This document shows positions 3,036 to 37,631 of a stretch of 64,000 bases of DNA, one piece after another. Origin of the DNA: Escherichia coli (lineage in GTDB: Bacteria; Pseudomonadota; Gammaproteobacteria; Enterobacterales; Enterobacteriaceae); NCBI RefSeq assembly GCF_003334315.1, contig NZ_QOWR01000013.1, one strand, 5' to 3'. The notes below the pieces were generated by a model, which was not told where the DNA came from, ran no database searches, and saw nothing but the letters and a program-made list of their open reading frames with translations. Made by a program: the position numbers and the translations under genes. The first letter of the stretch is position 1; each line of letters starts with the position of its first letter.

Positions 3036-4834
3036 TAGTAGACATCTCGCTGATAACGGCGCTCTACGCGCAGCTCACTTAAAAATTCATCCGCCGCTTC
3101 GGTGTCCATGCCACCAAATTCGGCAATCACTTCCAGAAGTGCCTGCTCAACGTCTTTCGCCATGCGATTAGCGTCACCGCAGACATAAATGTGGGCACCG
3201 TCATTGATCCAGCGCCACAGCTCCGCGCCCTGTTCGCGCAGTTTGTCTTGTACGTAAACTTTTTCTTTTTGGTCGCGCGACCAGGCGAGATCGATCCGCG
3301 TCAGCACACCCTCTTTGACGTAGCGCTGCCACTCCACCTGGTAGAGGAAATCTTCCGTAAAGTGCGGGTTGCCAAAGAACAGCCAGTTTTTTCCCGGCGC
3401 TTCATCGGCAGCACGTTGCTGCATAAAGGCGCGGAACGGCGCGATGCCGGTGCCTGGGCCAATCATAATCACCGGGGTTTCTGGATTGGCTGGCAGGCGG
3501 AAGTTATCGTTATGTTCGATAAATACGCGGACTTCGCCCTCTTCTTCCACGCGGTCAGCGAGGAAGCTGGAGGCACCACCGGCACGGGCGCGGCCTTCCA
3601 CGTCGTAACGCACCACACCAACGGTGACGTGTACTTCGTTCTCGACTTCCGCCTGCGAGGAGGCAATGGAATAGAGACGCGGCGTCAGCGGGCGCAGCAG
3701 ATTAATTAGCGCTTCGGCATCAAGCTGTGCCGGGGAGAAACGCACCATGTCAACAATCGGCGTCGTCGCGGCGTAATGCTGTAACTTCGCTTTATCGCCC
3801 ACCAGCGGCAGCAGTGTTTCACTGCGGGTAAGCGTGGCGTAATTCTCAACAATGTTGGCGGTGTTGACGGTCAGTTCGAAGTGCCACTGTAGCGCTTCGT
3901 TCAGAGGCAACGTTTTGCCCTCGACGGTGACAGGTTCATCGCCTTTCAGCCACAGCAGTTCGACAAGTTCTTTCACCAGTGCCGGATCGTTCTGATACCA
4001 GACGCCCAGCGCGTCACCCGGCTGGTAACGCAGGCCCGAGTCACCTAAGTCAATTTCGATATGGCGAACGTCTTTTTCAGAGTTACGCCCGGTAATTTTC
4101 TGGTTAACAGAGAGGCTAGCCACCAGCGGCGCGTCTTTGCTGTACGGGCTGGTGTGGATTTCATTTACCGCGCCAGTAGCGACGGATTGCGAAGGTGCCG
4201 CGACAGGCGCACGCGATTTAAGCGCATCAACCACGCGGGCGCGCCACTCGCTGGCAGCAGCCTGGTATTCAACATCGGCATCGACACGGTCGAGCAGGCG
4301 TTCACCACCCAGTTCCGCCAGCTTGCTGTCGAAATCTTTCCCGGACTGGCAGAAAAATTCATAAGAGCTATCGCCGAGGCTAAACACGGCAAACGCGGTG
4401 TTTTCCAGCTTTGGCGCTTTTTTGGAGAACAGGAACTTATGCAGCGCGACGGCTTCTTCCGGCGGTTCCCCTTCCCCTTGCGTTGACGTCACTACGATGA
4501 GCAGTTTTTCGCTGGCGACTTGTTTGAATTTATAGTCGCCCGCGTTCACCAGCTTAACGTTCAGTTTTGCTGCTAATAAATCATCACGTAATGCTTCAGC
4601 AACCCGGCGCGCATTGCCGGTTTGCGAGGCGGAGATAATAGTTATACCCGGCATTTCTGCGGCTGGCGCTGGCGTCGCTGCAAGCGCAGCAGGCTGCTGA
4701 TTGAGTACGCCCCAGAAATAGCCAGAAACCCAGGCAAGCTGGGTGGGAGTTAAATCGGTCGTGGCCGCCTGAAGGCGTGCCAGTTGCTCCGGGTTCAACG
4801 GAAGCAACGCGGAAGGTGGGACCTGTGTCGTCAT
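3035..4834 (-). CDS. cysJ: sulfite reductase flavoprotein alpha subunit
   Basis: 599-aa ORF recognised as CysJ (flavodoxin-like N-terminus, FAD/NADPH reductase C-terminus). Confidence 0.96.
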
Positions 4835-30990: not shown

Positions 30991-31103
30991 GCCTGTGTTT
31001 ATGCCGGATGCGGCGTTAACGCCTTATCCGGCATACAAAACCAATTAAATTCAATAAATTAAAAAGCATGTAGGCCTGATAAGCGTAGCGCATCAGGCAA
31101 TTT
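30991..31103. repeat. pair of REP elements (BIME) between barA and gudD
   Basis: GCCGGATGCGGCGTTAACGCCTTATCCGGC and GTAGGCCTGATAAGCGTAGCGCATCAGGC units, followed at about 31124-31156 by a CCGGCTC...GAGCCGG hairpin. Confidence 0.65.
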
Positions 31104-33863: not shown

Positions 33864-35216
33864 TTATTGCCCCGCAACAGGTTTCAACTCGATACGCTTG
33901 ATATCGCCCACCAGCACCAGGTAGCTCAGTACCGCGATTAAGGCATGAACACCAACATAAATCAGCGCCCCATTAAACGAGCCAGTCGTGCCAACGATAT
34001 AACCAATTGCGATTGGCGTGACGATGCCAGAAATGTTACCGAACATGTTGAACAGGCCACCGGAAAGACCGCTGATCTCTTTTGGCGCGGTATCTGCCAT
34101 TACTGCCCAACCCAGCGCCCCGATGCCCTTACCGAAGAAGGCCAGCGCCATAAAGCCGATGATCATCCACTCAACGTTGACGTAGTTGCAGAACACCATC
34201 ACCATCGACAGCAACATGCCCATTACGATCGGTGTTTTACGCGCAATGTTCAGCGATCCCGTGCGGCGCATCAGCCAGTCGGAAATAATCCCACCCAGCA
34301 CACCGCCGATAAAACCGCAAACCGCCGGAACGGAAGCCACAAAGCCCGCTTTCAGAATCGACATCCCGCGTGCCTGCACCAGATAAACCGGGAACCAGGT
34401 AATAAAGAAGTAAGTCAGGGCGTTGATACAGTACTGACCGATATAAACGCCGATCATCATCCGTGCCCCTAGCAGCTGTTTGATCTGCCCCCACTTCACG
34501 CTGAACGGCACTTTAACTTTGGTGTTTTGCTGATCCATATTGATCAGCGCACCACCCGCGGCGATGTACTCCAGCTCTTTCTTATTTACCCCCGGATGTT
34601 GATTTGGCTCGTGGATGACTTTCAACCAGATAAAGCTGATGACAATCCCCAGACCGCCCATAAAGAAGAAGACGTGTGACCAGCCCACTTCATGCGTCAG
34701 CCAGCCCATAATCGGCGCGAAGATCACCGTTGCGAAGTATTGAGCGGAGTTAAAAATCGACACCGCCGTTCCCCTTTCCTGCGCCGGAAACCAGGCCGCA
34801 ACAATGCGACTGTTGCCGGGGAAAGATGGCGCTTCAGCAAGCCCGACCAGGAAGCGCAGCGTAAACAGGGCAACGATAATGCCGAATCCACTAAAGATAT
34901 CGACGAAGCCTTGCAGCAAGGTAAACATCGACCAGATAAAGATCGACCAGAAGTAGACGCGTTTTGAACCAAAACGGTCCAGCAACCAGCCACCAGGGAT
35001 CTGCCCGATAACATAAGCCCATGAGAAAGCAGAGAACACATAGCCCATTCCCACGGGATCAAGGCCGATATCTTTGGCCATTTCCGAACCGGCGATAGAG
35101 AGCGTAGCGCGGTCGCCGTAGTTGAAGGATGTGACGATAAACAACATCACCACTATCCAGTAACGAGCATTTGTGCGTTTTTCCACACTGCTCGCAGCCT
35201 GACTTAAAGAACTCAT
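33864..35216 (-). CDS. gudP: galactarate/glucarate/glycerate MFS transporter
   Basis: 450-aa ORF recognised as GudP. Confidence 0.93.
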
Positions 35217-35541
35217 TGTTGCACTCCTGAAAATTCGCGTTAGCCACGCTCACTCTGGACTGCGACATCGCCAGGAAATCAGAGGTGACGTAGGGTGTTT
35301 TTTGCCGTTTTTATAGGTCGTTCGCCGAATACGGCGCGTGTTTATATCTGGCAATAGCAGTATAAAAAGCGCGCCATAGCGGCTCACCGTGCAACAACAC
35401 AACATTAATGCGTTCAATGAGGCCCGATTTTGGCATTAGCCCTGGACGGTGGAATCCACTTCACGGAAATGAAAACAAGAACAAGAAAGGAAGGGTTAAA
35501 ACGAAGAAATAAAGAAGAGTATGAAATGGATCGCTTGACTC

Positions 35542-35598
35542 CAGGCAAACGCCAGTAAAAATCCGCGCTATGAAGCAGTTTTTACTGGCATTTGCCTG
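35542..35598. repeat. long inverted repeat between yqcA and gudP
   Basis: CAGGCAAACGCCAGTAAAAA ...17 nt... TTTTTACTGGCATTTGCCTG; roughly 20-bp arms with one mismatch; no adjacent U tract. Confidence 0.5.
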
Positions 35599-35650
35599 AA
35601 AAGATTCGATTCAGCACCGCTAAAACGACATTTACCGCTCGCTGAACATA

Positions 35651-36100
35651 TCAGGACAACAGCGTGCCCCACTGTTCGACCCACGGATTTGATTCCGTTT
35701 CCGGTTCCGGGTTCTCACTGGCGTCAATCAACAGCATTTCGCCAACCCGCTGAGCGCTCTGTTCCTGCAACAAGGCATCGAACTGTTTGCCGCCATTGCA
35801 GAAATTCACATAACTACTGTCGCCGAGCGCAATCACGCCATAACGCAGATTCGGCTGGAAGCCCAGACTATCTTTGATTCCCTGAAAGAGTGGCACAATG
35901 CTATCAGGAAGGTCGCCCTGCCCGGTCGTGGACGTAACCACCAGAACATACTTATCCTGATAGGGCAGCCAGTCGCTTAATTCAGGATCTTCAAATACCG
36001 TTGCTTTGTGGCCCTGCGCGGTCAGAATCGCTTCCGCTTCTTCGGCCACTAACAGTGAATTCCCGTACATGGTGCCGACAAAAATACCAATTTCCGCCAT
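35651..36100 (-). CDS. yqcA: flavodoxin
   Basis: 149-aa ORF recognised as YqcA. Confidence 0.9.
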
Positions 36101-37271: not shown

Positions 37272-37631
37272 AATAAAAAAAGGGAGCACTGTATTCACAG
37301 CGCTCCCGGTTCGTTTCGCAGCATTCCAGCTACTTTTGTTGCTCCCTGCTCATCCTTGACAACTTTTCCTCTGGCCTTGCGGCCAATCGTTCATCCTGAA
37401 CTATTGCTTCCTGCTCACACCACCCCGATGTGATACTTCATCCTGAAGTGTCCCTGGCCTTCCTGACCCACCGAATCATCCTGACCGGTTCTCATTCTCC
37501 ATCCTGGAGGTGTCCTTTAACGCGTCCTGCGTCATCCTCTTCGCTTCATCCAGAAGCCTTTCCCTGAAACACCATCCTGGTGTGTCCTGCAGAAGTGTCA
37601 TCATCCTGATGTTCACTTCGTTGTCTGACTC
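37272..37631 (-). ncRNA. csrB: CsrB small RNA (CsrA-sequestering)
   Basis: Plus strand carries about 18 copies of CATCCTG, that is CAGGATG / AGGA CsrA-binding motifs on the minus strand; 3-prime end is a GGGAGCGCTGTGAATACAGTGCTCCC hairpin plus U-run; 5-prime end near GAGTCAGACAACGAAG (sequence recognised from memory). Confidence 0.92.

Follow-up and report, generated by a model that had tools for sequence, protein, structure and literature searches.

A long hairpin downstream of yqcA as the probable 3'-end structure of the yqcC-truC-yqcA mRNA of Escherichia coli

Results

A single-copy inverted repeat lies between yqcA and gudP

The stretch of DNA analyzed here (64 kb, hereafter the window) matches the genome of Escherichia coli K-12 MG1655 at this locus, and the hairpin described below corresponds to NC_000913.3 2922426-2922482. 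The neighboring genes are all encoded on the - strand, with yqcC, truC, and yqcA upstream and gudP (33864-35216) downstream of the hairpin (Table 1). On this strand the hairpin begins 52 nt downstream of the yqcA stop codon, and 325 nt remain between its end and the start codon of gudP. All 5,426 complete E. coli genomes contain the entire 434-nt yqcA-gudP intergenic region (median, one place per genome), and no feature is annotated within it. Upstream on the - strand, the CsrB small RNA is encoded at 37272-37631 (Rfam RF00018, 380 bits), as in the MG1655 annotation.

Table 1. Features of the yqcA-gudP region, in window coordinates.
Feature	Position	Strand	Description
yqcA (flavodoxin)	35651-36100	-	last gene of the apparent yqcC-truC-yqcA unit; its transcript carries the hairpin
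Remainder of yqcA 3' UTR	35599-35650	-	from stop codon to hairpin; includes CTGAATCG (35607-35614), conserved across genera
Full extended hairpin	35539-35601	-	23 basal/middle and 4 apical pairs, about -40 kcal/mol; span of the covariance-model match
5' arm of RNA hairpin	35579-35598	-	CAGGCAAAUGCCAGUAAAAA on the yqcA/gudP strand; includes the conserved box GGCAAATGCC
17-nt spacer	35562-35578	-	4-bp apical stem CUGC/GCGG (-2.8 kcal/mol), 8-nt loop, 1 bulged A
3' arm of RNA hairpin	35542-35561	-	UUUUUACUGGCGUUUGCCUG; G at 35550 makes a G·U pair on the - strand
Mapped RNA 3' termini	35533-35536	-	MG1655 2922417, 2922418, and 2922420 dominant; peak bounds 2922415-2922428 (PMC10687069, supplementary data 2-4)
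Conserved block	35517-35539	-	GTCAAGCGA-N4-TTTCAyAC; abuts the hairpin base; GTCAAG invariant in 26 genomes
Pyrimidine-rich, G-poor tract with C>G	35465-35528	-	just 3' of the hairpin; candidate Rho-loading (rut) region
gudP core element	35460-35475	-	TTTTCATTTCCGTGAA; conserved in 24/24 genomes
gudP core element (gud box)	35431-35442	-	GGGCTAATGCCA; conserved in 24/24 genomes
gudP core element	35383-35394	-	TTGCACGGTGAG; conserved in 24/24 genomes
gudP predicted -10 element	35359-35364	-	TATACT; conserved in 24/24 genomes

An earlier note on this DNA had described a near-perfect inverted repeat of about 20 bp between yqcA and the gud operon. Both the repeat and its placement were recovered: the two arms, CAGGCAAACGCCAGTAAAAA (35542-35561) and TTTTTACTGGCATTTGCCTG (35579-35598) on the + strand, have the sequence that was quoted, are complementary at 19 of 20 positions, and lie 17 nt apart between the yqcA stop (35651) and the gudP start (35216). 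Their sole mismatch is a C·A on the + strand and a G·U pair on the - strand. Pairing exceeds these arms by three basal pairs (35539-35601) and by four apical pairs within the spacer, and a looser inverted repeat (35 nt, 77%) covers 35527-35613. Folding also bore out the very stable hairpin that the note had predicted. The 57-nt core has a folding energy of -36.8 kcal/mol on the - strand (z = -9.0) and of -30.2 kcal/mol on the + strand (z = -7.9), and on neither strand was any of 200 shuffled sequences as stable.

On the question of further copies, which the earlier note had raised, the element proved to be specific to its locus. A query with the arms that allowed up to three mismatches returned only the two arms in the 64-kb window (0.02 matches expected), and the repeat is the longest local inverted repeat of the entire window. 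Membership in a dispersed repeat family (REP/BIME or ERIC) was rejected on the basis of this search and of the single locus per genome in all 5,426 E. coli genomes. An 87-nt hairpin query did match two places per E. coli genome, which in our reading reflects a match of the palindrome to itself on either strand. Among sampled E. coli variants the arms are unchanged, and a common SNP (35567) falls in the loop. The sequence of E. coli 2014C-4135 (L093) departs from that of the other sampled E. coli right after GTCAAG, so a rearrangement breakpoint may adjoin the hairpin base in this strain.

The window holds other palindromes. Two of them look like terminators: at 13239-13278 an A9 run precedes a perfect 16-nt inverted repeat, and at 13453-13492 a T7 run follows a second hairpin. 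Directly adjacent to these is a strong CRP site from the literature (ygcW/yqcE, MG1655 2900412, window position 13528). REP-like palindromes are present at 31000-31035 (TATGCCGGATGCGGCGTT / AACGCCTTATCCGGCATA) and 63478-63526 (AATCGCCGGATGCGAC / GTCGCATCCGGCAATT), and the yqcA hairpin is unrelated to these in sequence. Features on the + strand were considered at the hairpin locus and rejected: the -10 element of a promoter (TTGACT-16-AAAAAT) overlapping an arm is not conserved in other genera, as read from an alignment, and a 42-amino acid open reading frame (35430-35558) covers non-conserved sequence.

An RNA 3' end is mapped just past the stem

A study of RNA 3' termini (the TRS study, PMC10687069) reports a minus-strand terminus at this locus in three separate tables, drawn from RNAtag-seq and term-seq analyses. 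It is labeled a 'distant primary' terminus of yqcA; the 3' UTR measures 118 nt, and the longest U run is 3. The mapped end (Table 1) falls 6-9 nt beyond the base of the 20-bp stem (MG1655 2922426). As a check on coordinates, the csrB 3' end in the same tables is within 1 nt of its annotation. The published energy for the yqcA terminus is only -9.9 kcal/mol and the long hairpin went unnoticed, because the fold window cut off the 5' arm. In the supplementary data covered from another 3'-end study, no entry was found for the yqcA-gudP hairpin locus. Among the roles proposed in the earlier note, that of a structural element comes closest to these data, but the note had missed that the element lies in the yqcA 3' UTR with an RNA 3' end directly beyond it.

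The mapped 3' end assigns the hairpin to the yqcA strand, as do the energy differences between the strands: in six of six Escherichia lineages the yqcA-strand RNA is more stable than its opposite by 4-12 kcal/mol. The G·U pair was also considered as proof of strand, but this argument is weakened by an Escherichia lineage (L001) that has a C·A at the same pair.

Neither strand has a U tract after the stem. The next 9 nt are GAGUCAAGC on the - strand, with one U only, and AAAAGAUUC on the + strand, and a terminator consensus scan of the window left the hairpin unflagged. With a published U run that does not exceed 3, these results agree with the earlier view that the hairpin is not a classic intrinsic terminator, in which a G+C stem is followed directly by a U-rich tract of 7-8 nt. 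The sole U run in E. coli (U5) is instead buried in the stem, after a tip of -2.8 kcal/mol, and the tables of PMC10687069 list no 3' end at this internal position.

The hairpin might nonetheless act as a non-canonical intrinsic terminator that releases the RNA a few nucleotides past the stem, with neither a U tract nor Rho. The hairpin is extremely stable, and a 3' end 6-9 nt past the stem is at the distance usual for intrinsic release. Yet the 9 nt after the stem contain a single U, and efficient release by E. coli RNA polymerase needs a weak rU:dA hybrid. The only U run follows a weak tip at which no 3' end is reported, and the sequence composition farther downstream, described below, fits Rho loading. 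We consider intrinsic release by this hairpin unlikely, even with terminator-like homologues in other genera, as described below, and the suggestion that a weak intrinsic terminator with Rho as backup may be a transition state (Dar and Sorek, 2018; PMC6061677).

The position of the 3' end also bears on a role as an RNase III site, at which cleavage would destabilize the yqcA mRNA or split off gudP RNA made by read-through. RNase III can act on duplexes of about 20 bp or more, and the stem, an almost perfect duplex with 23 contiguous pairs including G·U pairs, reaches this length. Efficient cutting, however, would put ends inside the stem, whereas the dominant steady-state 3' end lies outside an intact one. 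RNase III cleavage is therefore not the main fate of this RNA, and we hold such a role to be very improbable.

Alternatively, the hairpin could be the terminator of an unannotated small RNA that starts near the conserved CTGAATCG between yqcA and the hairpin. Several genera have a terminator-like hairpin and a U run after a conserved 5' block (CTGAATCGaGTtAGC), an architecture resembling that of small RNAs, and reads are about 2-3 times as dense over the 3' UTR as over the coding sequence (PMC10687069). Against this, the - strand has no promoter-like site in E. coli, the E. coli hairpin lacks a U tail, and PMC10687069 leaves the 'nearby TSS' field of the terminus empty and does not flag the locus as a 3' UTR-derived transcript. 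Rfam searches of the window (E-value mode) and of 18 related genomes (gathering mode) found no family at the hairpin, CsrB being the sole match in both. A small RNA ending at this hairpin thus appears highly improbable.

The sequence downstream of the hairpin is pyrimidine-rich

Just 3' of the hairpin, the transcribed (-) strand has a distinctive composition. Positions 35455-35541 are 70% pyrimidine, which is the 99.9th percentile of the window, with a C/G ratio of 1.67; over 35430-35533 the ratio is 2.0 and there are 22 YC dimers. The purine-rich stretch that the earlier note saw on the + strand beside the repeat is the same tract read from the other side. By its composition the segment at 35465-35528 is a candidate Rho-loading (rut) region and a candidate single-stranded stretch accessible to RNases.

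These features resemble those of a known class of transcript ends. Dar and Sorek (2018; PMC6061677) showed that Rho-dependent transcripts of E. coli have precise steady-state 3' ends directly downstream of stable stem-loops, which are not followed by U-rich sequence and which shield the RNA from PNPase and RNase II. The Rho-loading region, with C enriched over G, is located just downstream of the stem-loops (PMC6061677). The yqcA hairpin is likewise stable, follows the last gene of its unit, has no U tail, and is succeeded by a 3' end a few nucleotides past the stem and then by sequence with more C than G. It differs from this class in its stem, which is unusually long compared with terminator hairpins, in its internal A5/U5 tracts, a remnant of a terminator-like ancestor (see below), and in that Rho dependence and exonuclease trimming are properties we infer for the yqcA transcript.

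The hairpin has changed across Enterobacteriaceae

We collected 80 yqcA-containing loci from other Enterobacteriaceae, most of which keep gudP downstream. A covariance model was built from the Escherichia hairpins together with one Citrobacter and one Superficieibacter homologue. It matched only at this position, in Escherichia, several Citrobacter, Salmonella arizonae/diarizonae, and Superficieibacter. The middle of the stem (pairs 9-22) is kept across genera, with pair 16 occurring as A-U, U-A, and C-G, and the pairing register is specific: 80.7% of cells are paired, compared to 32-49% when the partners are slid. Covariation of the arms was no better than in column shuffles, 109 of 500 of which reached the observed pairing, and it rests mainly on one pair. 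Individual folds limit the long stem to some genera. RNAalifold on all 26 genomes with the flanking motif returned no consensus structure, since the tip hairpin and the 5' box are all that is kept in Kosakonia, Phytobacter, and others.

The base and the tip of the stem differ between genera. The five basal pairs (CAGGC/GCCUG) are paired in Escherichia only. The tip has sequences that vary by genus and yet always pair. In E. coli it is the weak CUGC/GCGG stem, whereas Citrobacter and Raoultella have a 5-7 bp G+C stem with A and U runs (-6.9 to -13.2 kcal/mol). The homologues of Citrobacter, Raoultella, and Superficieibacter, which have A and U runs on either side of a G+C tip, resemble classical intrinsic terminators, and that of Citrobacter sp. 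MGH106, a G+C stem followed by a T run, was flagged as terminator-like on both strands in the scan. From these comparisons the 20-bp arms appear to be an Escherichia-specific lengthening of an older terminator-like hairpin, the tip of which has decayed.

Enterobacter and the Citrobacter freundii group lack the hairpin module and have G+C-rich, REP-like hairpins after yqcA instead. Palindromes of this kind (GCCGGGTAAGGCGTAGCCGCCACCCGGC) were seen just after yqcA in L009, L024, L026, L029, L034, and L037-L040. They hold a position equivalent to that of the E. coli hairpin, and replacement by another palindrome that can block exonucleases fits a role at the RNA end.

Other arrangements were also observed after yqcA. 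In many genera (loci L007, L018, L021, L022, L023, L045, L053, and L056, at about 3450-3480) an extra hairpin, CCCTCCC...GGGAGGG, comes directly after the gene, and some 45 nt of conserved sequence (GCCAGTAAGCAAAA-AACGACC) come next; neither is present in Escherichia. These genera have a conserved non-coding stretch of about 170 nt between yqcA and the gudP core. Escherichia albertii (L011, 3448-3600) has neither the gud operon nor any of the intergenic module. A different hairpin, ATGCCCTCTGATAATCAGAGGGCAT, follows yqcA there, and beyond it lies the apparent end of an oppositely oriented coding region.

The gudP control region and a possible operator

An alignment of the 330 nt upstream of gudP from 24 genomes revealed the core elements listed in Table 1; a -35/-10 match for gudP was found in two other genera too. 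The hairpin and the adjoining conserved block (35517-35539) make up an upstream module of the gud region, with the block forming the upstream edge of the conserved gud module. In sequence, the block is similar to a CRP half-site (AGCGA-N6-TCACA, with TCATA in E. coli), and the mapped RNA 3' end falls within it. Genome-wide CRP footprinting has confirmed a CRP site in garP/garD and located a new one upstream of cdaR; a gud site is not among the 77 strongest sites. In the predicted gudP 5' UTR (35251-35287 on the - strand) an inverted repeat with an energy of -13 kcal/mol may form a leader RNA structure. Both of its sides have changed together, from CATTCTGA...TCAGAATG in most genera to CACCTCTGA...CCAGAGTG in E. 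coli.

The upstream regions of garP and cdaR share GCATTTGCACAATG (L082, 7033-7046; L083, about 3400-3416). At gudP (35359-35394), GTTGCACGGTGAG is found at the same place relative to the TATACT -10 element (CAGTATAA on the garP side). These sequences constitute a candidate recognition element for CdaR. What the garP, cdaR, and gudP promoters have in common is TTGCAC adjoining the -35 region.

The earlier note had also suggested that the repeat could be a protein operator in the gudP control region, for which a CdaR-type activator is known. At the level of DNA, each arm would then carry a palindromic box, GGCAAAYGCCAG, the two copies being inverted, with 43 bp between their centers, and binding CdaR or another regulator of gudP, the RNA hairpin being incidental or a second use. 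In indirect support, the arms resemble a conserved gudP box: the 5' arm box GGCAAATGCC is identical at 10 of 12 positions to GGGCTAATGCCA in the universally conserved gudP core. The columns of the box are invariant or nearly so across 26 genomes, even in genera where the long stem cannot form, and they are more conserved than the pairing partner. The spacing between the hairpin-side block and the core (to TTTTCATTTCC) is nearly constant at about 64 nt, though the sequence between them is not conserved. In most of the eight genera compared, the garP/garD region has similar conserved boxes (GCATATGCACA and GCGCTAATGCACA). No exact GGC-N4-GCC box was found in the garP/garD region. The motif GC-W4-GC occurs seven times in the upstream regions of gud, garP/garD, and cdaR against 0.41 expected (post hoc p = 2.6e-7), an enrichment that is overstated because the motif was picked after the data had been viewed.

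Several observations argue against an operator. All core gudP elements are kept in Enterobacter and the Citrobacter freundii group although these lack the whole module, and the hairpin is therefore unnecessary for core gudP regulation. The predicted gudP start site is about 197 and 240 bp downstream of the two boxes, and the arms are without TTGCAC. Only in Escherichia is the 3' arm a second box. The center of the palindrome is self-complementary with genus-specific sequences, a property that an operator does not need and that points to RNA. A literature search for CdaR found no binding site or binding data. Overall, an operator as the primary function appears rather improbable.

Both functions might be combined, such that the RNA hairpin at the 3' end of yqcA doubles as a distal pair of DNA operators for a putative glucarate/galactarate regulator motif. 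The distance between the arms corresponds to about four helical turns, and the arm box recurs in the gudP core and resembles the garP/garD boxes. If this were true, Escherichia would have completed the second box and lengthened the stem by the same substitutions. We rate such dual use as a slender prospect.

Discussion

We consider it probable that the hairpin after yqcA is the structure that defines the 3' end of the yqcC-truC-yqcA mRNA and blocks exonucleases, with termination just downstream that is probably Rho-dependent. The RNA end sits where a protective stem would leave it, on the strand on which the hairpin is the more stable, and the composition of the adjoining sequence fits Rho loading. 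Like the REP sequences that stabilize mRNAs at their 3' ends, the element is an extragenic palindrome after a gene and would be able to block exonucleases; unlike them, it is present in a single copy per genome.

In the mechanism that we propose, RNA polymerase moving past yqcA would transcribe the element, and the CUGC/GCGG tip with its U5 run would be too weak to terminate transcription. Once the 3' arm has been synthesized, the full hairpin of 23 and 4 bp would form. Transcription would stop shortly downstream, in the pyrimidine tract with C in excess over G, with Rho as the most likely agent; endonucleolytic cutting of read-through RNA may have the same outcome. Exonucleases that act in the 3' to 5' direction would then trim the tail until blocked by the hairpin, leaving the end 6-9 nt past the stem. 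As a by-product, yqcA transcription would probably be kept out of the inducible gudP promoter region immediately downstream.

Some observations count against a 3'-end structure of this type. The position of the 3' end also fits intrinsic release driven by the hairpin. Covariation in the arms is weak, and the stronger conservation of the 5' arm box relative to its partner suggests that something other than RNA pairing may constrain it. The extra hairpin right after yqcA in many genera, alongside the homologue of the present one, implies that the ancestral element need not have been a yqcA terminator. Given its loss together with the gud operon in E. albertii, the module may be linked to gud rather than to yqcA.

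As a 3'-end structure, the hairpin is an ordinary, unannotated example of a kind of mRNA end that is already known, and a specialist would find nothing here surprising. It accounts for an unannotated conserved element in a core intergenic region of E. coli, gives the yqcC-truC-yqcA unit a defined 3' end, and marks where the gudP control region begins. In practical terms, users of the gudP upstream region as a glucarate sensor should be aware that its distal part encodes a strong RNA hairpin and includes another transcript's end. Within the family, the decayed tip and lengthened arms would be a natural example of the drift between intrinsic and Rho-dependent, protective ends that Dar and Sorek proposed (PMC6061677).
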